Positions 8,303 to 56,768 of a stretch of DNA of 64,000 nucleotides are shown here, piece after piece. The notes beneath the pieces were generated by a model. The model had not been told where the DNA came from and did no database searches. It saw only the letters and a list, made by a program, of their open reading frames with translations. The DNA comes from Acidimicrobiales bacterium. Its GTDB lineage: Bacteria > Actinomycetota > Acidimicrobiia > Acidimicrobiales > RAAP-2. The position numbers were made by a program, and so were the translations under genes. The stretch spans positions 8,463 through 72,462 of the forward strand of contig DASXEK010000040.1 in the NCBI GenBank assembly GCA_036490155.1. Direction: 5' to 3'. Position 1 is the first letter of the stretch; each line of letters begins with the position of its first letter.

Positions 8303-9897
8303 TCCGCCGTCTTCGCACCTGGTTGGGTCGTCACCGTGACGAGGAGCGCGGTGCGGTCCTCGTCCTCACCTGCATTGCCATGATTGCCGTGCTCGGCGCC
8401 GGCGCCATGGGCGTCGACCTTGGGTTCACGGCCGTCGGCACCCGAACGGCTCAAGCCATGGCCGACACGGCCTCGCTCGACCTCGCCAACGACATCAGCG
8501 CCGCGAATCAGTACACGACCAATGCGGGCATACAGACCTTCTTGAACAACGAGCTCGCAGGCGTCTTGAAGGACAATGCTTCGGATGCACAGCTCGCTGT
8601 CACGCTGGGTCTCTGGCAGGGAGGGAAATGGACCGTCCCGAGTGGAGGCTGCGCTGGGGCGACACCACCGTGCAATTCCGTCGCCGTCACGGCGAAACAG
8701 ACTGTGCCCCAACCCTTCTGGGGTGGGTTCAATTCCCTGTCGGGAAAGAGCGGCAGTGGAATCGCCAGCTGCGGGACGACCGGATGCACGAAGTGCCCCA
8801 CCACGGCGTGCGCAACCGGAGAGACAATGGCGTGCCTCTCCATCGGATCGGACCTGGCGAGCTTCAGCTCGTCGCAGTCGACGCTGCTCAACTCCCTATT
8901 GGGCTCGTTGGGGGGCTCCGTCAACCTCACCGCTGTCGGCTACCAGGGCTTGGCCGACACGTCCGTCAGCGTCGGTCAGCTCATCAACGCATCTGGGACC
9001 GTGCTCTCTCCGTCAAACATCCTGACGTCGTCGGTGTCGGTACAGAACTGGCTCTCCTTCCTGGCGACGGCCATCGGCAACCAGACCGCCGCCGGCACCT
9101 GTTCGTCCGGACCCGGTACGCAGCAACAGAACGCGGAGACCGCGCTCAACGGCATCAGTGGCAGTGGCACTACGAAGCTTGAGCTGTGCAACTTTCTCGC
9201 CATAAACGGCTCGACCTGCGCCAGCGGCAGCATTCCTTTCTCGTCGCTGTCGGCTGGCATCAACGTGCTGCAGATGCTCACCACCATGGCCGAGATCTCG
9301 AACGGGAGCAGCGGGGTCAACTTGGGCCTCAATCTGAACCTCGGCCTCACCACGGCAAGTGTCAACGTCAATGCCATCCAGCCACCCCAGATCGCCTATG
9401 GGCCGGTGGGCTCGGTGACCGACTCGACGAAGCCGTGCCCGGCCACCACGCCGGCCACCTCCACGTGTGCCACCACCGCGCAGATCGATCTCACCCTGAA
9501 TCTCAACGTGGTCGGTCTTTCGGCGCTCACCTTCACGTTCTTGGCAGCCCAGGGCACCGCCACGCTCGACGCGGTCAACTGCTCGGGAAACGCGATGACC
9601 AGCACAGTGATCAATGCAAGCACGACGACGCTCTCGGCCTCGGCGAACCTTCTGGGCCTCCTCGGTGGACTCGCGACGGTGTCGGTCACCGGCGTCCCAA
9701 ACACGCCGTTGAGCTACACCGTTGCGCCGAGCACGCAACACGTCGGCTCGACCACTCCGTCGCTGACGGTGTCCGGGATTACAGTCCCCGGCCTCGGCGC
9801 CCTGCTCGGTCCCCTGTTCCAGGCCCTCGGCGTGTCGGTGGGTGAGGCTGATGTCGTCGACCTCGGCACGAACTGCAACTCGGTCACGCTCAGCTGA
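8299..9897 (+). CDS. tadG: TadG-like (Tad N-terminal domain) large Ser/Thr/Gly/Asn-rich pilus-associated protein
   Basis: N-terminus ERGAVLVLTCIAMIAVLGAGAMGVDLG. ATGA overlap with tadE. Confidence 0.65.
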   Translation: MIRRLRTWLGRHRDEERGAVLVLTCIAMIAVLGAGAMGVDLGFTAVGTRTAQAMADTASLDLANDISAANQYTTNAGIQTFLNNELAGVLKDNASDAQLAVTLGLWQGGKWTVPSGGCAGATPPCNSVAVTAKQTVPQPFWGGFNSLSGKSGSGIASCGTTGCTKCPTTACATGETMACLSIGSDLASFSSSQSTLLNSLLGSLGGSVNLTAVGYQGLADTSVSVGQLINASGTVLSPSNILTSSVSVQNWLSFLATAIGNQTAAGTCSSGPGTQQQNAETALNGISGSGTTKLELCNFLAINGSTCASGSIPFSSLSAGINVLQMLTTMAEISNGSSGVNLGLNLNLGLTTASVNVNAIQPPQIAYGPVGSVTDSTKPCPATTPATSTCATTAQIDLTLNLNVVGLSALTFTFLAAQGTATLDAVNCSGNAMTSTVINASTTTLSASANLLGLLGGLATVSVTGVPNTPLSYTVAPSTQHVGSTTPSLTVSGITVPGLGALLGPLFQALGVSVGEADVVDLGTNCNSVTLS

Positions 9898-48639: not shown

Positions 48640-49347
48640 TTATCGGGCTACCGCCTGGGGCATCTCGTACAGCTCGTCGTCGTCCCAGGCCCCCGGGTAC
48701 CCGGCGGTGGCCGGGTCCACGTGGCCGCCCGCGTCGACGGCGGGGCCGTCTCGCCGTGTCGGGCGCATCCGCTGGTGGCCTTGGAGCTCGTTGGCGTAGG
48801 CCATCAGTGCCACCAGGCCAAGAGCCGTCAGCCCGGTCAGGCCGGTGAAGATCCAGGCCAGCTGCATGCCCGGCAACACCCCGATGATCCCAGTGGTGAC
48901 AGCAACCCCGCAGAGACACCGCAACACGAGGTTGAAGCGCTGACGCGCCTGCTCCCGTCGGAGCGCACGGAGGTCCGCCCTCACCTCGGGCAAGCAAACG
49001 GGCTCGGGCCGGTCGAGGACGCCGACCCGCTCGTACTGACAGCCCTCGCCGTCGGCCACGTCGGCTGCGGTGGAGTCGCCCGTCGGCCGCAGCAGCACCA
49101 GCTTGGGACGAGAGCTGTCCGGTGACAATGGGGGGGTTTCAGAAACGGGACCCCCGGGAAATGCTGTGTGCAGCCGGTATGCGGGCGCGAAGGTCTTCGG
49201 CCCAGCGTGCTCGAGCAGCTGGAGCTGATGATGAAAGCTTTCGATGGACCCGACACCCTCCCGTTCGGCAAAACGTCGCCAAACGCTCGGCGCCAGGACC
49301 GCCACCCATAGCACCGCTACAAGTCCCAGCAAGATCACAATCGCCAC
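48640..49347 (-). CDS. Hypothetical membrane protein
   Basis: An N-terminal TM segment and two C-terminal TM segments; no motif recognised. Confidence 0.45.
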   Translation of the reverse strand: MAIVILLGLVAVLWVAVLAPSVWRRFAEREGVGSIESFHHQLQLLEHAGPKTFAPAYRLHTAFPGGPVSETPPLSPDSSRPKLVLLRPTGDSTAADVADGEGCQYERVGVLDRPEPVCLPEVRADLRALRREQARQRFNLVLRCLCGVAVTTGIIGVLPGMQLAWIFTGLTGLTALGLVALMAYANELQGHQRMRPTRRDGPAVDAGGHVDPATAGYPGAWDDDELYEMPQAVAR

Positions 49348-49529
49348 TCCCCGACGACCTACCTTCGCTCTGTTCTAAAAAGCCTATTGAGCAGCTCTTT
49401 AGAAATGGTGGATGGTGGGGAAATGCACCGCGCCGACCACGTCGGCACTTCTCCGCTTGGCATCGATTTGTACCAACCTCGACGCGCCGATTCAAGCGCG
49501 TTCTTCCCGCCCTGCTCATGGCCGGTGCG

Positions 49530-50324
49530 TCACTCCGATACCGCGCGACTCCACCATCTCCCGTCGTTGCAGCCGACCGTGACGGGCACGTCGAAGCAGG
49601 CCGACACGTTCCGCGACGTGATCACCTGGGCGAGCGGGCCTGCGGCGATGATCGATCCGGCCCGCACCAGGCCAGCGTGGGTGAATCCCGGCGGGATCTC
49701 CTCGCAATGGTGCGTCACCAGGACCACCGGGGGGCTGGTGTCGTCTGCGGCCACGGTGGTGAGACGCAGGAGGAGGCGCTCGCGGGCGCCGAGGTCAAGG
49801 CCGGCGAAGGGCTCGTCGAGCAGCAGCAGCTCGGGATCGCTCATCAGCGCTCGCGCCAGCAGAACCTGCTGACGCTCACCCTCCGAGATCACCCCGAAGG
49901 ACCGATCGGCGATCGCACCGACGCCACCCTGGGCCAGGAGCCGGTCGGCCTTCTCCCAATCGGCGCCCGTATAGGTGTGCCACCACACCTCGAGGGCGCC
50001 GTGCCGGCCACTCGCCACCACTTCGCGCGCCTTCACGTCGCCGCGGAGCTGGCGGGTGATGGCGCCGCTCACGAGGGCGACTCGGGGGCGCAACGTCCGG
50101 ACGTCGACCTGGCCCAGCCGCTCGCCCAGGATCTCGACCTGGCCCCCCGTCGGCCACAGACGCGCCCCGGCCACTCCGAGCATGGTCGTCTTGCCGGACC
50201 CGTTCGGTCCGAGGATGACCCAGCGGTCGCGCTCCTCGACCCGCCAGTCGACACCGTCGAGCACGGGCACCCCGTCGCGGCGGACGGTGACGCCCCGCAG
50301 CGTCACGGCCGCCCGGTAGCTCAC
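49530..50324 (-). CDS. Orphan ABC-type ATP-binding protein (no cognate permease adjacent)
   Basis: GPNGSGKTT, SEGERQQVLLARAL and LLLDEPFAGLD motifs. GTGA overlap with the upstream small ORF. Confidence 0.75.
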   Translation of the reverse strand: MSYRAAVTLRGVTVRRDGVPVLDGVDWRVEERDRWVILGPNGSGKTTMLGVAGARLWPTGGQVEILGERLGQVDVRTLRPRVALVSGAITRQLRGDVKAREVVASGRHGALEVWWHTYTGADWEKADRLLAQGGVGAIADRSFGVISEGERQQVLLARALMSDPELLLLDEPFAGLDLGARERLLLRLTTVAADDTSPPVVLVTHHCEEIPPGFTHAGLVRAGSIIAAGPLAQVITSRNVSACFDVPVTVGCNDGRWWSRAVSE

Positions 50325-50641
50325 CCCTCCGGCTGATCGGACGAAACGAGCCGCCGGTTGATGCGCCCGATGAGGCCCGAACAACAGTGCGCCCAGGTCC
50401 GCTCACCGGCCAGCCAGAGCCAGACCTCGCGCCGGTAGTCGACGACGATCCGCTCCAGGTCTTTCTCGCTCAGGCCGACCGACGCCAGTGACCTCCAGCG
50501 CGACCACAGCCAAGGCACGAGACCGTCGGGCCCGCGGAGCACGGCGGCGAGGTCGCGGCCCTGATCGACGACTTCAACCCTCCAGGCGTCGGCTCGCAAC
50601 AAGGGCTCGTCCGGCACGTGCAGGACCGGTGCGGCGGTCAC
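50321..50641 (-). CDS. Hypothetical protein (106 aa)
   Basis: Compositionally coding. The GTG start lies 3 nt after the FrhB-like stop. Confidence 0.4.
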   Translation of the reverse strand: MTAAPVLHVPDEPLLRADAWRVEVVDQGRDLAAVLRGPDGLVPWLWSRWRSLASVGLSEKDLERIVVDYRREVWLWLAGERTWAHCCSGLIGRINRRLVSSDQPEG

Positions 50642-50643
50642 GC

Positions 50644-51915
50644 TCAATGGCGGATGAACACGGGCTGGCGGTCCGTGCCTTCGTACGCGCGTACGTGCTC
50701 CTCGTAGTCGATGAACAGCGGGGCGTCTGGGTCGAGCTTGCGTTGCAGCGAGCGGTTGGCGATCTTCTTGTCCAAGGCGTCGAGCCGGAGCAGCGCGGCC
50801 GGGTCGTCCAGCCCGCGGACGTCCAGCTTCGCCCGCGCCGCCTGGAAGGCCAGCCGTCCGCGCTCGGTCCGGATCAGGACGCTGGTCCATCCGTTCATGG
50901 AACCGACGCTGCCGACCGAGATGTCCGCCGAGCGGCCGAGAAAATCGGCGCACTCGTCGCATCCCTTGAGCGCGGCGCCATGGAAGTCCTTCACCGGCTC
51001 GTCGACGGCCAGCTCGCCGTCGCGGTACTCGACGATCATCCGCCCGCGGATGACGTCCATCTTCGAGACACGATCCAGGTCGACGCCCCTCTTGTCGCGC
51101 AGCTCCCGCAGCGTCAGCGCCTCGTAGTCAAAATTCTTCGTGCACATCAGGGCAATCGACAGCACCACCGCATCGACCCGGTGCGCGCCCGTCGGCCACC
51201 GGCGAGCCTGCATGGCGCGTAGCCCCTGCACCTCACACGGGGTACCGACGACGGCGATCCGAGGCTTGGCTGGGAGCTGATAGCGCGACAGGTCGAGCTC
51301 GGCGAGCGCCATCGTCTGGTTGTAGAAGCTCCCCGCCGCAGCACGGATTTCGTCGGCGGTCGTGGCGATGGTCGCGATGCCCTTCCACTGCTCGTCGGGA
51401 TCGGGACTCGGCTTCGACACCAGCGCGCCGTCGATCTCCCCCGAGGCGAGCAGGCCGATCAGGAGCGCGCTCACCGCCCCGCCGTCCTGGGCGTCGTCGT
51501 TCTGCGTGCCGGCGCGCACGGCGTAGGACTCCACCACTGCCCCGAGGCCGTCGGCGGGCGGCCCGCCGCTGATCTTCCAGTAGGTGTCCGACGAGTCGGA
51601 GCGCACCTGGTCCGGCTGCACGGCGGCGTCCTCCCCCGCGTCCACCGTGGAGGGCGGCCACAACGCCTCGTAGCGGAGTCCGCCCCGCGGGCAGAAGTCC
51701 CAGCACAGGGAGCAGCCGGTGCACATCTTGACCAGCTCCGGCAGGTTGGTGTCCTCGTCGATGCCGATGGAGTTCGACGGGCATACGGCCACGCAGGTGC
51801 CGCATTGGATGCAGCGCTCGGCGTGGATCACGCCTGCTTCGAGCTCCCAGAACCACACCTTGCCCGGGGGTTCCTCTATTCCGTTCATCTCCTCGCGGAG
51901 GCGGTAGCGCTTCAC
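50644..51915 (-). CDS. FrhB/FdhB/FpoF-like protein with N-terminal 2x[4Fe-4S] ferredoxin domain
   Basis: CIQCGTCVAVCP and CTGCSLCWDFCP clusters. FrhB-like blocks QDGGAVSALLIGLL..GEIDGALV, VVGTPCEVQGLR and CDECADFLGRSADISVGSVG. GTG 51915 overlaps the sir stop (GTGA); an alternative ATG lies at 51888. Confidence 0.75.
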   Translation of the reverse strand: MKRYRLREEMNGIEEPPGKVWFWELEAGVIHAERCIQCGTCVAVCPSNSIGIDEDTNLPELVKMCTGCSLCWDFCPRGGLRYEALWPPSTVDAGEDAAVQPDQVRSDSSDTYWKISGGPPADGLGAVVESYAVRAGTQNDDAQDGGAVSALLIGLLASGEIDGALVSKPSPDPDEQWKGIATIATTADEIRAAAGSFYNQTMALAELDLSRYQLPAKPRIAVVGTPCEVQGLRAMQARRWPTGAHRVDAVVLSIALMCTKNFDYEALTLRELRDKRGVDLDRVSKMDVIRGRMIVEYRDGELAVDEPVKDFHGAALKGCDECADFLGRSADISVGSVGSMNGWTSVLIRTERGRLAFQAARAKLDVRGLDDPAALLRLDALDKKIANRSLQRKLDPDAPLFIDYEEHVRAYEGTDRQPVFIRH

Positions 51916-53612
51916 GAGGTCACCGCCTCGGTGGCCCCGACCAAAAGGGACTGCAGCTCTTCGGGCGCGGTGCGCCGGGCCCAGAGGTAGAAGGGCTCCT
52001 CGGGCCGGTGGTCCTCCCGATAGCGGGTGACCACGCGCAGGAGCGCGTCGGGAACACGGTCGACCGGCAGCGCACCGGTGAGCCAGTCGATGAACGCAGC
52101 GTCGGGGCCGAGCGAGCCGCCCAGCCCGATGTCCACCGCTTCCTCGATGTGCTCGTCGACGTGCGCAATGTCGCCCCGGAAGCCGATGTCCGCGATCTGC
52201 GGCTGCGCGCACGAGGCGGAGCAGCCTGAGAAGTGCATCCGGATGATGCCGGCATCGGCGGCGACGCCGTCCCCCTGGGTGGCGAGCAGTTGGGCATCGA
52301 GCTGCCGCGCCCATTTGACCGCGCGCTCCTTGGTCTCCACCACGGCGAACCGGCAGAACTCGCTGCCCGTGCACGCGACGACACCGCGCACGAAAGGGCC
52401 CGGGAAGGGCGAGTACTTCTCAATGAGCGGCTCGGCCAGCAGGTCGTCGAGCCGGTCCTCGGGAACACCCGCGACGATGAAGTTCTGGTCGGTGCCGATC
52501 CGCACGCCGCCGTCCCCGTAGGTCTCGGCCAGGCGCGCCAGTTCGATCAGGTCGATGCCGTGCATGCGCCCCACCGGCACCGAGCAGCCGACGTAGAACA
52601 AGCCCGGCTGCTTCTGTGGGTGGACGCCGACGTGGTCACCGCGGAAGGCGGTGGTCAACTCGCGGCCGGCTGGCTCCAGGGCGAAGCTCGTCCGCTCGTT
52701 GAGCGCGGCGCGGAAGCCCTCGGGGCCCAGCTCCTGGGCCAGGTATCGCATGCGGGCCAGGCCACGGTTCTCCCGGTTCCCGAGTTCTCCGAAGAGCTGG
52801 GCGACGCCGCGGCACAGCTCGACGGCCTGGTCGGACCGGATGAAGACGTCGATGTCCGACGCCATGCGCTCGCCGTCGGAGAGCCCGCCGCCGATGAGGA
52901 CGTTGAACCCCACTGTGCCGTCCGCGTGCTCGGCCGGCCACAACCCGACGTCGTTGATCTCAACGCGGGCGCAGTCCTCCGTGCACCCCGTCACCGCGAC
53001 CTTCCACTTGCGCGGCAGGTTGGCGTACTCGCGGTTGCCGGTGAAGTACGCCGAGATCGCCCGGGCCACCGGAAACGCCTCGACGACCTCTTTCTCGTCG
53101 ATTCCCGACACAGGGCACGAGCACACGTTGCGCGCCGAGTCGCCACAGGCCTGCACGGTGGTCAGCCCGACCTCCCAGAAGCGCTGCCAGATGCGGGGCA
53201 CGTCGGCGATGCGGATCCAGTGCAGCTGGATGTCCTGGCGGGTGGTCAGGTCGGCGTAGCGGTTCCCGAACACCGCGCTGTCGTCGGGCCCCTCGGCGAA
53301 CGCGTCAGCCGCCACGCCCACCTCGCGCACCTGGGCCGCCGTCATGACCCCGCCGGGCACCTTGATGCGCATCATGAACGCATCGCCGCCCTGTCGCTGC
53401 GGGTACATGCCGACCCACTTCAACCGCTCCTGCTCACCCGGCACCTTGTTGATGGAGTCAGGGCCCTGCTTGGAGTAGGTGTCGATGACGGCCTGCGCCA
53501 CCTCGAAGGGGTGGCGCGCTAGTTTCAGCTGCTCGACGCTGTTCAGCTCGCCGATGTTGCGGTAGGGCCGGACGAACTTGAGACCGCGGTCGCGCCGGCC
53601 GCGAAACTCCAT
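51912..53612 (-). CDS. sir: Assimilatory (ferredoxin-type) sulfite reductase hemoprotein, nitrite/sulfite reductase family
   Basis: Two NIR_SIR repeats. Siroheme/4Fe-4S Cys cluster VTGCTEDCARVEINDVG ... CTGSEFCRFA ... FSGCSASCAQP. True start at MEFRGRR. Confidence 0.9.
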   Translation of the reverse strand: MEFRGRRDRGLKFVRPYRNIGELNSVEQLKLARHPFEVAQAVIDTYSKQGPDSINKVPGEQERLKWVGMYPQRQGGDAFMMRIKVPGGVMTAAQVREVGVAADAFAEGPDDSAVFGNRYADLTTRQDIQLHWIRIADVPRIWQRFWEVGLTTVQACGDSARNVCSCPVSGIDEKEVVEAFPVARAISAYFTGNREYANLPRKWKVAVTGCTEDCARVEINDVGLWPAEHADGTVGFNVLIGGGLSDGERMASDIDVFIRSDQAVELCRGVAQLFGELGNRENRGLARMRYLAQELGPEGFRAALNERTSFALEPAGRELTTAFRGDHVGVHPQKQPGLFYVGCSVPVGRMHGIDLIELARLAETYGDGGVRIGTDQNFIVAGVPEDRLDDLLAEPLIEKYSPFPGPFVRGVVACTGSEFCRFAVVETKERAVKWARQLDAQLLATQGDGVAADAGIIRMHFSGCSASCAQPQIADIGFRGDIAHVDEHIEEAVDIGLGGSLGPDAAFIDWLTGALPVDRVPDALLRVVTRYREDHRPEEPFYLWARRTAPEELQSLLVGATEAVTS

Positions 53613-53641
53613 CCCATAGGGATTGTCGAGGTCGCGCGGCA

Positions 53642-54322
53642 CTATTGGTGCAGGCCGCACTCGGTCTTGTCGAGACCCGACCAACGCCCCGAGCGCGGGT
53701 CCTCCCCCACCGACACCGGGCGGGTGGTCGGGGCGCAACCGATGGAGAGGTAGCCCCGTGACCGGAGTGGGTGCTCGGGCAGGTCGTGGTCGGCCAGGTA
53801 CGCCGCCACGTCGTCGTCGGTCCACGTGGCGAGCGGATTGATCTTGATCAGCCCGAAGTTGGCGTCCCAGCTCACGATCGGTGCGTCGGCGCGTGTCGGT
53901 CCGTCGGAGCGCTTGAGCGACGTCAACCAGGCCGCCTTGCCCGCGACGGCGCGCTGGAGCGGACCCACCTTGCGGAACTGGCAGCACTGCGCACTGCCAC
54001 AGGGGTGGGCGGCCGCCTCGGGCCCGGGCTTGGTGACGGTCAGGTTCAGCCCGTAGCGCGCCCGGACGGCCTCGACGAACTCGAGCGTCTCGGGAAAGTG
54101 CGCCTCGGTGTCGAGGAAGACGACCTCGATCGCCGGGTCCACCCTGGTGGCGAGGTCGATCAGCACGATGTCCTCGAACGACGCGGCCAGGACCAGCGAG
54201 TGCCCGAACTCCTCGACCGCCCAGCGGATGGAGGCGCTGGCCGGCGCCGTCTCGAATCCCTTGCTGACCAGGGCGAGGTCTTCGGCGCTCATAGGCTGTT
54301 CACTGAGGCTGATCTCCGTCAC
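53642..54322 (-). CDS. cysH: Adenylyl-/phosphoadenylyl-sulfate reductase
   Basis: C-terminal DPRSGRWSGLDKTECGLH, and an internal CC pair (SAQCCQFRK). Confidence 0.9.
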   Translation of the reverse strand: MTEISLSEQPMSAEDLALVSKGFETAPASASIRWAVEEFGHSLVLAASFEDIVLIDLATRVDPAIEVVFLDTEAHFPETLEFVEAVRARYGLNLTVTKPGPEAAAHPCGSAQCCQFRKVGPLQRAVAGKAAWLTSLKRSDGPTRADAPIVSWDANFGLIKINPLATWTDDDVAAYLADHDLPEHPLRSRGYLSIGCAPTTRPVSVGEDPRSGRWSGLDKTECGLHQ

Positions 54323-54409
54323 CGATCCTCACCTTCTCGGGGCGTTCGACCCGTTTCCCGGGGTCCGCCGCCTGCCTTGACGCACGAACAAAATCTGGCT
54401 TTAGTATAC

Positions 54410-54426
54410 ATGACCAAAATGGTCAT
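54410..54426. promoter_or_regulatory. Palindrome ATGACCA-AAA-TGGTCAT in the cysH/cysD divergent region
   Basis: Perfect 7-bp arms within an AT-rich patch, 17 nt upstream of the proposed cysD ATG. Confidence 0.4.
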
Positions 54427-54442
54427 AAATCGAAGAGGTCCC

Positions 54443-55444
54443 ATGGACACCGCCGCTGCTCTCCGCACTCAGCCCGACCAGCCCGACGCGGGGCGTCGCG
54501 CCGCCCACGCCGGTGCCTCGGTGACCGCCCTGGTCAGGCCCGTCGAGCACCCGCTCGGACACCTGGACCTGCTCGAGTCCCTGGCCATCTTCATCATCCG
54601 CGAGGTAGCCGCAGAGTCCGAACGACCGGTCCTCCTCTTCAGCGGCGGGAAGGACTCGGCGGTCCTCCTTCACCTGGCCTCGAAGGCCTTCAAGCCGGGC
54701 GCGATCCCCTTCCCGGTGCTGCACGTCGACACGGGCCACAACTTCGCCGAGGTCCTCGACTACCGGGACGCGCAGGTCGAGGCGGAAGGCGCCCGGCTCC
54801 TCGTCGCCAAGGTGCAGGACTCCATCGACCAGGGCCGCGTGGCCGACCCCGGACCCGGTGCCTCGCGCAACCGCCTGCAGACCACGACCCTGCTCGATGC
54901 CATCACCGCCAACGGGTTCGACGCCGCCTTCGGCGGCGCCCGCCGAGACGAGGACAAGGCGCGCGCCAAGGAGCGCGTGCTGTCGTTCCGCGACTCGTTC
55001 GGGCAATGGGACCCCAAGCGCCAGCGTCCCGAGCTGTGGCAGCTGTACCAGGGCACCGTGCGTCCGGGTGAGCACCTGCGCGCCTTCCCGCTCTCGGACT
55101 GGACCGAGCTCGACATCTGGCAGTACATCTGGCGCGAGCGGATCGAGCTGCCGTCGATCTACTACGCCCACGAGCGCGAGGTGGTCGAGCGCGACGGCAT
55201 GCTGCTCGCACTCAGCGAATGGGTGACGCCGCAGGACGGCGAGGAGGCCCGCAAGGAGACGGTTCGCTTCCGCACCGTCGGTGACGCGACGTGCACCGGG
55301 GCCGTGCGCTCCGAGGCGGACACGGTCGAGGAGATCATCCGCGAGGTGTCGTCCTCCCGGATTTCCGAGCGCGGGGCCACCCGCGCCGACGACCGGTTCT
55401 CCGAGACGGCCATGGAAGACCGCAAGCGCGAGGGTTACTTCTAG
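54443..55444 (+). CDS. cysD: Sulfate adenylyltransferase subunit 2
   Basis: PVLLFSGGKDSAVLLHL PP-loop, and a C-terminus ending EDRKREGYF. GAAGAGG RBS before ATG 54443. Confidence 0.9.
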   Translation: MDTAAALRTQPDQPDAGRRAAHAGASVTALVRPVEHPLGHLDLLESLAIFIIREVAAESERPVLLFSGGKDSAVLLHLASKAFKPGAIPFPVLHVDTGHNFAEVLDYRDAQVEAEGARLLVAKVQDSIDQGRVADPGPGASRNRLQTTTLLDAITANGFDAAFGGARRDEDKARAKERVLSFRDSFGQWDPKRQRPELWQLYQGTVRPGEHLRAFPLSDWTELDIWQYIWRERIELPSIYYAHEREVVERDGMLLALSEWVTPQDGEEARKETVRFRTVGDATCTGAVRSEADTVEEIIREVSSSRISERGATRADDRFSETAMEDRKREGYF

Positions 55445-55448
55445 GCCG

Positions 55449-56768
55449 ATGACGACGTTGCCCGGCTCCCCGCCGGCGGGCGGGACCGAGCTCGGCATGG
55501 ACACCATGGATCTGCTTCGCTTTGCCACCGTCGGCTCGGTCGATGACGGCAAGAGCACCCTCATCGGCCGGCTGCTCTACGACACACGACAGCTCTTCGA
55601 CGATCAGGTCACCGCGATCGAGACGGCCTCTGAACGCCGGGGCCTCGGCGAGGTCGACCTGTCGTTCGTCACCGACGGCTTGCGGGCCGAGCGCGAGCAG
55701 GGCATCACGATCGACGTCGCGTACCGTTACGCGGCCACGCCGCACCGCAAGTTCGTCATCGCCGACTGCCCGGGGCACGTGCAGTACACGCGCAACATGG
55801 CCACCGGCGCCTCGACGGCCGACCTGGCGCTCGTCCTCGTCGATGCGACCTCGGGCCTGCGGGAGCAGTCCCGCCGGCACATCTGCATCACCGCGCTTCT
55901 CGGCGTCGACCAGCTCGTCGTGTGTGCCAACAAGATGGACCTGGTCGGCTGGGACCGTTCCGCCTACCAGCGGATCGTCGACGAGATGGAGGCGTTGGCG
56001 CACCGGCTCGGCGTCTCGTCGTGCATCGTGATCCCCGTCTCCGCCCTCAACGGCGACAACGTGGTGACGCGCTCCGAGGCAGCGCCGTGGTACGACGGGC
56101 CCACGGTGCTCGACGCCCTCGAGTCAGCCCAGGCGGGCGGGTGGGCGGCGCAGCACGGCCTGCACCATGGGAGCGGCGCCCGGCTGCCGGTCCAGTGGGT
56201 GCTCCGCCAGCCCGGGGGCGGCCGGAGCTACGCCGGCATGGTCAACGGCGGGCCGTTGCGCGTCGGCGACCACGTCACCGTGCTCCCCGGTGGTGCGCAG
56301 ACGACCGTCCGCGGGATCGACACCGCGGACGGGCCGCTGCAGCGCGCCGAGGTCGGCCTGTCGGTCTCGGTCCGGCTGGCCGACCACCTCGACGTCTCGC
56401 GCGGCGACCTCATCGCGGCGGCCGAGGACCCGCCCGAGGTCACCGACACGTTCGAGGCTACGGTCTGCTGGTTCCAGGAACGGCCGCTGAAGGCGGGCGA
56501 CCGCCTGCGGCTGAAGCACACGACGCGCGTGACCCCGGTCGTCGTCGAGAGCGTCACCGGCTTGTTCGACGTGAACGAGCTGCGCGTGATCGAGGCGGAC
56601 GAGCTGCGCGAGAACGACATCGGCGTGGTGCGGTTGCACACCGCCATGCCGCTCGCGGTGGACACCTACGCCGCGGACCGCATCACGGGGAGCTTCGTCC
56701 TCATTGACGAGCAGACCTTCGCAACGATCGCGGCGGGCATGGTCGGGCCGCCGCGTTTGCATGACTGA
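55449..56768 (+). CDS. cysN: Sulfate adenylyltransferase subunit 1 (GTPase), without a fused APS kinase domain
   Basis: GSVDDGKSTLIGRLL, DCPGHVQYTRNM and NKMD. At 439 aa it ends before any CysC domain. Confidence 0.9.
   Translation: MTTLPGSPPAGGTELGMDTMDLLRFATVGSVDDGKSTLIGRLLYDTRQLFDDQVTAIETASERRGLGEVDLSFVTDGLRAEREQGITIDVAYRYAATPHRKFVIADCPGHVQYTRNMATGASTADLALVLVDATSGLREQSRRHICITALLGVDQLVVCANKMDLVGWDRSAYQRIVDEMEALAHRLGVSSCIVIPVSALNGDNVVTRSEAAPWYDGPTVLDALESAQAGGWAAQHGLHHGSGARLPVQWVLRQPGGGRSYAGMVNGGPLRVGDHVTVLPGGAQTTVRGIDTADGPLQRAEVGLSVSVRLADHLDVSRGDLIAAAEDPPEVTDTFEATVCWFQERPLKAGDRLRLKHTTRVTPVVVESVTGLFDVNELRVIEADELRENDIGVVRLHTAMPLAVDTYAADRITGSFVLIDEQTFATIAAGMVGPPRLHD

Follow-up and report, generated by a model that had tools for sequence, protein, structure and literature searches.

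A free-standing FrhB-family flavoprotein paired with an assimilatory sulfite reductase in Acidimicrobiales: a candidate F420H2-dependent enzyme

Organization of the locus

The window analyzed in the present study is a stretch of 64,000 nucleotides (positions 8,463 to 72,462 of contig DASXEK010000040.1, assembly GCA_036490155.1) from an Acidimicrobiales metagenome-assembled genome (MAG). Its minus strand carries an assimilatory sulfite reductase gene, sir, followed directly by a gene for an iron-sulfur flavoprotein of the FrhB family, which is referred to below as the FrhB-like protein (gene frhB). [quoted passage not shown] The source MAG comprises 3.4 Mb in 95 contigs (approximately 80% complete, 2.5% contaminated), and its nearest relatives are soil and peat Acidimicrobiaceae/Acidimicrobiales MAGs. 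The genes of the locus that concern sulfate assimilation are as follows; the names aFsr-alpha and aFsr-beta are those of a predicted enzyme discussed in the last section.

51912-53612, minus strand: sir (aFsr-alpha), NirA/SirA-type siroheme-[4Fe-4S] assimilatory sulfite reductase, 566 aa (Pfam)
50644-51915, minus strand: FrhB/FpoF-family iron-sulfur flavoprotein (aFsr-beta), 423 aa, proposed electron-input subunit (Pfam, PDB matches)
51912-51915, minus strand: GTGA overlap of the sir stop TGA (51914-51912) and the FrhB-like start GTG (51915-51913), read directly
53642-54322, minus strand: cysH, adenosine 5'-phosphosulfate/3'-phosphoadenosine 5'-phosphosulfate (APS/PAPS) reductase, first gene of the operon (Pfam PAPS_reduct, E 4e-41; NCBIfam NF002537, 239 bits against a cut-off of 154)
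54443-55444, plus strand: cysD, sulfate adenylyltransferase small subunit, divergent (NCBIfam NF003587, 365 bits against a cut-off of 195)
55449-56768, plus strand: cysN, sulfate adenylyltransferase large subunit, divergent (TIGR02034, 504 bits against a cut-off of 336)

The GTGA overlap that the earlier note had reported was confirmed by direct reading of the minus strand, and it points to translational coupling of sir and frhB. Of 25 diverse loci examined, most show an overlap of 4 nt or 1 nt or a gap of up to approximately 12 nt at this junction, and the N-terminal sequence 'MK(R/G)(Y/F)..RE.MNGI' of the FrhB-like protein is retained by all orthologs. Because both this N-terminus and the overlap are conserved, the GTG start was preferred over an internal ATG at approximately 51888. 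The description of the surroundings as a cysH-sir assimilation operon was likewise correct, with cysH (PAPS_reduct) lying upstream of sir on the same strand and ending in a TAG codon at 53644-53642. Regarding the start of sir itself, an alternative to the ATG at 53612 is a GTG in the same frame at 53642, which shares bases with the stop codon of cysH (TAGTG, 53640-53644, minus strand). This GTG could be the true start, in which case cysH and sir would be translationally coupled too. A scan for promoters and terminators across 49000-55000 in both directions yielded nothing, although such a scan is uninformative for an organism of such high GC content.

Domains and cofactor residues of the FrhB-like protein

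The motifs that had been quoted for the FrhB-like protein (CIQCGTCVAVCP, CTGCSLCWDFCP, QDGGAVSALL, VGTPCEVQGLR, and CDECADFLGRSADISVGSVG) are all found in the translation of the open reading frame at 50644-51915 (minus strand). The predicted architecture of a ferredoxin domain joined to an FrhB module also held, with matches to Fer4, FrhB_FdhB_N, and FrhB_FdhB_C in this protein and to NIR_SIR in its partner. The protein is divided into the following parts.

51682-51831, minus strand: N-terminal 2x[4Fe-4S] ferredoxin domain, residues 29-78 (Fer4 dicluster, Fer4_21, E 4e-10)
51550-51654, minus strand: variable low-confidence linker between the ferredoxin domain and the FrhB core, residues 88-122 (predicted local distance difference test, pLDDT, below 50)
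50827-51525, minus strand: FrhB core, residues 131-363, with the FAD (flavin adenine dinucleotide) site, [4Fe-4S] ligands, and a putative F420 pocket (alignment to FrhB 3zfs_C)

In Pfam, FrhB_FdhB_N covers residues 131-205 (E 5e-18; 65 bits against a cut-off of 22) and FrhB_FdhB_C residues 219-363 (E 1.6e-36; 126 bits against a cut-off of 23). Among 26 orthologs, six cysteines of the ferredoxin domain (C35, C41, C45, C65, C68, and C71) never vary and two others (C38 and C75) hardly do, and the length of the linker differs widely.

The core was aligned residue by residue to FrhB of M. marburgensis (3zfs_C), and the alignment was interpreted with the help of the residues that Mills et al. (2013; PMC3591093) had identified. 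Several residues of the cluster and of the putative flavin and F420 sites, which the earlier note had raised as a test, have been kept: the FrhB cluster cysteines C104, C134, C192, and C195 align to C227, C258, C319, and C322, which are invariant in the 26 orthologs; QDGG (143-146) is retained at the start of the FAD-phosphate helix; the tyrosine of the FrhB pair K75-Y76 is present as Y198; and the F420-facing pair S209-V210 is retained as S336-V337. However, the lysine of K75-Y76 is replaced, such that the pair reads F-Y here (and N-Y in the F420-dependent 8riu_B), and the FrhB loop 163-IGKGK reads VIRGR, which leaves two basic residues. Taken as a whole, the residues of the core fit putative F420 binding without proving it. 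The top PDB sequence matches are all linked to F420, namely, Fsr (7np8/7npa/9tn7), the F420-reducing CODH/FMD subunits 8riu_B and 8rja_E, and FrhB (3zfs_C). The protein thus matches both FrhB Pfam domains above their thresholds, a check for which the earlier note had called, and its closest solved structures use F420.

A second, distant FrhB-family gene is present elsewhere in the MAG (contig C5:35010-35723; L122:6261-7799, plus strand; 37% identity), in a frame of at most 512 aa that includes a Fer4 domain. Its neighbors are ABC-2 transporter genes and a gene of the DJ-1/PfpI type, with no reductase partner nearby, and weak paralogs of this type occur in approximately 125 of 401 sampled Actinomycetota genomes.

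The sulfite reductase

Pfam detected NIR_SIR (E 5e-51) and NIR_SIR_ferr (E 3e-36) in sir, each in two stretches, and no Fer4 domain. Among 21 orthologs (alignment A4), the CX5C...CX3C cysteines C414, C420, C464, and C468 are invariant, as are R125, R201, K202, and K204, to which a role in substrate binding may be assigned by analogy. Several of these columns lie in a segment that also contributes to the complex model described below.

52209-52373, minus strand: sir segment with invariant columns (alignment A4); residues 421-424 and 463-466 of sir belong to its predicted interface with the FrhB-like protein

The only NIR_SIR protein found in the MAG was sir, together with a strain-variant copy on contig C55. 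This 2.2-kb contig (C55:1-2245; L107) holds a second sir-frhB pair, whose frhB and sir share 91% and 83% identity, respectively, with the copies in the window, and the pair probably reflects strain heterogeneity or a mis-binned relative rather than a paralog. We also considered natural fusions of sir with the FrhB-like protein. Nine long predicted proteins of this type were found, all of which are singletons and nearly all from ENA metagenome assemblies; they were not counted and were judged to be frameshift artefacts at the overlapping stop and start because in several of them meaningless out-of-frame sequence separates the halves or sir is truncated.

Co-inheritance of sir and frhB

The order cysH-sir-frhB-orf106, the last gene being described below, was found in all 80 of the best genome loci, all from Acidimicrobiales, in which the FrhB-like protein is more conserved than sir (74-95% vs. 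68-90% identity). In 23 of 23 further loci, with identities down to 39%, sir lies directly upstream of frhB; these loci span other actinobacterial families and a probable haloarchaeal contig with haloarchaeal-type neighbors. The operon always includes cysH, with cysDN or sat-cysC alongside.

We then sampled 401 Actinomycetota genomes, a set that includes the unpublished genome G318, on which alone no claim rests. A strong FrhB-like ortholog (E < 1e-58) was detected in 48 of these, mostly in the family identified as Rubrobacteraceae (30/31) and in a second family, f19. The scan for sir was bimodal: 45 genomes encode a sir with an identity of 61% or more, and these coincide exactly with the carriers of the strong FrhB-like ortholog, whereas the remaining SirA/NirA homologs are at most 47% identical to sir (at most 44% among intact genes). 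Considering these identities, the FrhB-linked sir proteins constitute a distinct class among actinobacterial SirA/NirA enzymes. The two genes are adjacent in 44 of the 45 genomes with a close sir, the remaining pair being split by contig ends, and neither gene was found in other families of the same order among the sampled genomes. This pattern of co-occurrence indicates one inherited unit with a patchy distribution. The co-conservation anticipated in the earlier note was thus observed at every distance examined, and the pairing is common in several actinobacterial lineages.

The Rubrobacter xylanophilus ortholog (ABG03931.1 / BBL78389.1) is 60-64% identical to the FrhB-like protein of the window, depending on the alignment, and occurs in the same sir-frhB context; ABG03931.1 may correspond to locus tag Rxyl_0964. 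In a genome of family f19 (L106; G293:C4:153200-169800), a second sir-frhB pair stands in tandem beside an intact pair. The frhB match of this second pair is split in two and its sir match contains an in-frame TGA, and the copy looks as if it is decaying.

F420 synthesis genes

The note had called for F420 biosynthesis genes in the genome, and these are present in the MAG above curated cut-offs: cofD (319 bits against 257), cofE adjoining it (238 against 181), cofH/fbiC (471 against 374), and cofC (128 against 105), along with the F420:NADPH oxidoreductase Fno (185 against 150). The F420 pathway of the host is known here from genes alone. TIGR01819 was used as the marker for cofD; PF01933 was rejected for this purpose as unspecific, because it matches YvcK-type proteins in E. 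coli and others. No match to Fgd (F420-dependent glucose-6-phosphate dehydrogenase) was obtained above the cut-off in the MAG, only 18 generic luciferase-like matches, and NADPH acting through Fno is therefore a plausible source of F420H2.

Among the genomes carrying a FrhB-like ortholog, 45 of 48 have cofE, and the other three are MAGs that are 63-89% complete; in the sampled Actinomycetota as a whole, the cofE scan placed F420 synthesis in 249 of the 401 genomes. A closer association was found in Rubrobacteraceae, in which cofE lies on the same contig and strand as the FrhB-like gene, no more than 8 kb away, in 26 of 30 genomes (25 of 29 without G318). In three of the four others, the assembly is fragmented and cofE and the FrhB-like gene have ended up on separate contigs. 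In R. xylanophilus AA3-22 (L096:65-9460), the genes cofD-cofC-aroG-cofE-cysH-sir-frhB-orf111-sat-cysC are arranged on one strand, with aroG, between cofC and cofE, being a DAHP synthase gene. The order cofD-cofC-cofE-cysH-sir-frhB is shared by 10 of 11 extracted Rubrobacteraceae loci from nine genera (L096, and also L090, L091, L093-L095, L097, L098, L105, and L108), with a gap of 200-300 nt between cofE and cysH, and a metagenome contig with Rubrobacter-like sequence also has cofE near cysH.

Predicted complex of sir and the FrhB-like protein

A complex of the two proteins was modelled, with each protein given as an alignment that we built ourselves. The median score was 0.74, against 0.00 for the best control; 58 of 80 solved complexes scored this high, as did 2 of 110 mismatched pairs, a calibration that is only rough because our own alignments were used. 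Between runs, at least 73% of the contacts are shared, and the partner pLDDT is at least 82. On the side of the FrhB-like protein, the modelled interface consists of the N-terminal helix, which spans residues 2-19, and of residues 46-48 and 63-73 in the ferredoxin domain. On the side of sir, it comprises residues 245-250, 283-294, 421-424, 463-466, and 480-514, beside the cysteines of the siroheme-coupled cluster. The predicted docking site would thus coincide with the position at which an electron donor should dock. From this model we infer a physical complex, binding of the two proteins being supported by it without being demonstrated. We know of no solved complex of an aSir with a protein of the FrhB family.

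A third gene, orf106, and the ABC ATPase

Two further genes follow frhB on the same strand.

50321-50641, minus strand: orf106, 106-aa all-helical protein, candidate third component (homologs beside frhB)
49530-50324, minus strand: ABC-type ATPase, without an adjacent permease (Pfam ABC_tran)

The start of orf106 lies 2 nt past the FrhB-like stop, and its own stop shares a second GTGA with the start of the ATPase gene. Homologs of orf106 occur downstream of frhB in 80 of 80 Acidimicrobiales loci as well as in Rubrobacteraceae (e.g., L096:7283-7618) and f19 loci, and share the motifs LxxPxEP, LWxxW, YRRELWLW..GERTW, and GLxGRxxRR. The AlphaFold2 (AF2) model of orf106 is all-helical with a pLDDT of 94 and a predicted template modelling score (pTM) of 0.85. 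The protein has no match in Pfam or NCBIfam, and its neighbors in the Atlas were uninformative; its fold gave no Foldseek match in the PDB at E <= 0.001, and the best VIA-align Z score, 5.6, is at the background level for helical proteins.

In alignments A3 and A5, orf106 is absent beside the orthologs from f27, f51, L088, and probable haloarchaea. With the exception of P0141, the FrhB-like protein of each of these lineages is extended at its C-terminus by a tail, '..R.(H/Q)Y.(V/E).C' ('..HY.VSC'), that ends in a cysteine. None of the 26 compared sequences had both orf106 and the Cys-ending tail. Their mutual exclusion suggests that orf106 and this tail may play equivalent roles.

The ABC ATPase gene stands beside orf106 in closer relatives only, and it is uncertain whether it is part of the sir-frhB system. 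Its best NCBIfam match was 'putative F420-0 ABC transporter ATP-binding protein', at 126 bits against a cut-off of 372.

Interpretation and alternatives

In the present study, we propose, with a probability that we put at roughly 0.6, that sir and the FrhB-like protein constitute an F420H2-dependent assimilatory sulfite reductase of two components, or of three with orf106. The six electrons required for sulfite would be drawn from reduced F420 and not from free ferredoxin. NADPH would reduce F420 through Fno, and F420H2 would transfer a hydride to the FAD that the FrhB core binds. Single electrons would leave the flavin via the [4Fe-4S] cluster of the core, then pass through the two clusters of the N-terminal ferredoxin domain to the siroheme, at which sulfite supplied by CysDN and CysH would be reduced to sulfide. 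What the sequences themselves establish is the domain content and cofactor ligands of the two proteins, the translational coupling and strict co-inheritance of their genes, and the F420 pathway genes of the host; F420 as the donor and the direction of electron flow are inferences.

Several points weigh against this proposal. The case for F420 rests on family resemblance and gene context, and some members of the FrhB family (HCAR and BciB) do not use F420. The curated NCBIfam models for FrhB (TIGR03289, 152 vs. 331.5 bits) and FpoF (NF040616, 134 vs. 475 bits) give the FrhB-like protein scores well short of their cut-offs. Since the protein falls below every equivalog cut-off, it is to be regarded as a member of the superfamily and not as an ortholog of FrhB or FpoF. 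In the alignment, phenylalanine replaces K75 of FrhB, and the basic F420 loop is poorly kept in the more distant group-B orthologs. Co-occurrence with F420 synthesis discriminates little because the pathway is so common in these lineages, and the proximity of cof and cys genes in Rubrobacteraceae is suggestive rather than decisive because it represents one inherited arrangement with a gap of 200-300 nt. The score of the complex model is subject to its rough calibration, and the source genome is 80% complete.

The same sub-threshold family scores, the missing lysine, and the degenerate loop, which would hold the F420 phosphate, may be explained if the FrhB-like protein is a dedicated input subunit of sir that accepts electrons from a donor other than F420, such as a flavin or a deazaflavin including Fo, reduced ferredoxin or flavodoxin, or NAD(P)H via a partner. 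The fold is able to serve other substrates, as HCAR illustrates, and the coupling and docking evidence is compatible with any donor. We nevertheless consider this alternative to be unlikely. Pfam detected no NAD(P)-binding domain in the FrhB-like protein, and all of the characterized family members that act in electron input oxidize F420H2. In a Foldseek search with the AF2 model of the protein (mean pLDDT 78), the top matches were 8riu_B, 8rja_E, Fsr, and FrhB, with 24-31% identity, whereas the ferredoxin-dependent HCAR (5dqr) ranked lower with 17%. Moreover, the genome has the F420 pathway and Fno, and cof genes abut the Rubrobacteraceae cluster.

Regarding the substrate, sulfite is expected because cysH and cysDN lie alongside sir. 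The possibility that the pair reduces nitrite or another oxyanion, or that it serves in sulfite detoxification instead of assimilation, was raised by the solved relatives of sir, among which plant ferredoxin-nitrite reductases (319 bits) score higher than M. tuberculosis NirA/SirA (1zj8; 240 bits). Archaeal FsrII is a nitrite reductase (PMC9295563), and no NIR_SIR protein other than sir was found in the MAG. However, the M. tuberculosis 'NirA' is itself a sulfite reductase, and cysH is constant in the operon, with cysDN or sat-cysC alongside. In the K202-W-K204 motif of sir, both flanking residues are lysine, while the aligned tobacco nitrite reductase carries asparagine at the second position. 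Work on the N226K variant of tobacco Nii3 reportedly identified this second position as one that separates sulfite from nitrite reductases, and we take the lysine of sir to be the sulfite-reductase state. A different substrate or role is accordingly regarded as quite improbable.

It is slightly more improbable still that the FrhB-like protein is no catalytic donor, acting instead in cluster or siroheme maturation, redox repair, or the regulation of sir, or that the adjacency is meaningless. A function in assembly might be read from the presence of orf106 and the orphan ABC ATPase in the same operon, but the conservation of the FrhB-like protein exceeds that of sir; the protein also keeps all cofactor ligands, is co-inherited with a distinct sir clade, and places its ferredoxin cluster in the model beside the sir cluster in an electron-wire layout like that of Fsr (PMC10229431).

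A bolder form of the proposed F420H2-dependent enzyme may be put forward only tentatively. It would be a three-component F420H2:sulfite oxidoreductase with orf106 as an obligatory subunit or assembly factor, which the Cys-ending tail replaces in haloarchaeal-type versions. Abundant, aerobic Actinomycetota of soils (Acidimicrobiales, Rubrobacteraceae, and one further family) would then depend on F420 as an essential cofactor of central sulfur assimilation, and the fusion of cofDCE with the cys genes in Rubrobacteraceae would represent the co-regulation of the supply of a cofactor with its main anabolic consumer.

The known bacterial roles of F420 lie mainly in secondary metabolism, the reduction of xenobiotics and prodrugs, and cell-wall lipid steps. 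If the proposed enzyme exists, F420 would be placed in core anabolism, namely, cysteine synthesis, and whole soil lineages would need it to grow on sulfate. The enzyme would also be the first case of an assimilatory siroheme reductase that has its own FrhB-type flavin/iron-sulfur donor built in, and thus a third solution beside the NADPH flavoprotein CysJ and free ferredoxin.

Comparison with known systems

The M. tuberculosis enzyme NirA/SirA (1ZJ8) and the ferredoxin-dependent reductases of plants share their fold class and the CX5C...CX3C motif with sir, and the mycobacterial sulfite reductase, similar to sir, lies within an assimilation operon containing cysH. Their donor is free ferredoxin, and no gene of the FrhB type is paired with them. 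The FrhB-like protein has its core fold, its cluster cysteines, the QDGG motif, and some residues of the putative F420 site in common with FrhB, FpoF/FqoF, and the F420-reducing CODH/FMD subunits (3ZFS/4OMF, 6QGR, 8RIU_B, and 8RJA_E); however, the partners of the latter are a hydrogenase, the complex-I-like Fpo, CODH, or FMD.

In group I Fsr of M. jannaschii and M. thermolithotrophicus (7NP8, 7NPA; PMC10229431), the 2x[4Fe-4S] ferredoxin part and the FrhB-type FAD/[4Fe-4S] part both align to the FrhB-like protein, with an identity of approximately 25% for the N-terminal module (Fsr-N), and in both systems a flavin would be wired to a sulfite-reducing siroheme-[4Fe-4S] center that yields sulfide. 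In contrast, Fsr is one polypeptide whose reductase half is a single Dsr-like repeat into which a ferredoxin domain is inserted, and it assembles into a homotetramer in which cofactors are swapped. The window has two translationally coupled genes instead, and the reductase is an aSir of the monomer type that has two repeats and lacks such an insertion. The likeness to a split Fsr suggested in the earlier note therefore extends to the FrhB/ferredoxin module, but not to the reductase half; because the latter is Dsr-like in methanogens and not an aSir, the pair is an analogue of Fsr and not literally a split one.

The closest counterpart is the two-subunit 'aFsr' predicted in haloarchaea by Susanti and Mukhopadhyay (2012, PLoS One 7:e45313; PMC3448663), in which aFsr-alpha is an aSir and aFsr-beta a homolog of Fsr-N. 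The pair in the window has the same order of an aSir-type gene followed by a free-standing ferredoxin plus FrhB gene, and the probable haloarchaeal proteins P0136 and P0163 are 39-48% identical to the FrhB-like protein, with a sir gene upstream of P0136. The tree in that paper includes R. xylanophilus Rxyl_0964 and Thermobaculum terrenum, although aFsr was called an archaeal invention, and an unfused intermediate toward the fused methanogen Fsr was proposed (PMC3448663). The name aFsr was repeated in the alignment legend of a 2022 paper, a 2021 classification described FrhB-class F420 enzymes as exclusively archaeal, and a 2021 review of F420 listed only archaeal Fsr. With respect to the remark in the earlier note that no characterization of such a system was known for bacterial SirA-type enzymes, no biochemical characterization of aFsr was found in the literature searched, but the idea had already been predicted under this name in 2012. 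The aFsr of that paper is haloarchaeal with two subunits, whereas the pair in the window is bacterial, from Acidimicrobiales, and accompanied by a conserved orf106, in place of which haloarchaeal-type orthologs have the Cys-ending C-terminal tail.

The pair therefore appears to be a bacterial member of the predicted aFsr kind of enzyme, and the idea itself is not new. The present study adds the strict co-inheritance of the two genes, the cof-cys supercluster of Rubrobacteraceae, a docking model, and a third gene to a prediction that is now 14 years old and for which a cultivable carrier, R. xylanophilus, exists. If the proposal is correct, sir and the FrhB-like protein would be a living two-subunit counterpart of the unfused intermediate proposed by Susanti and Mukhopadhyay (2012).

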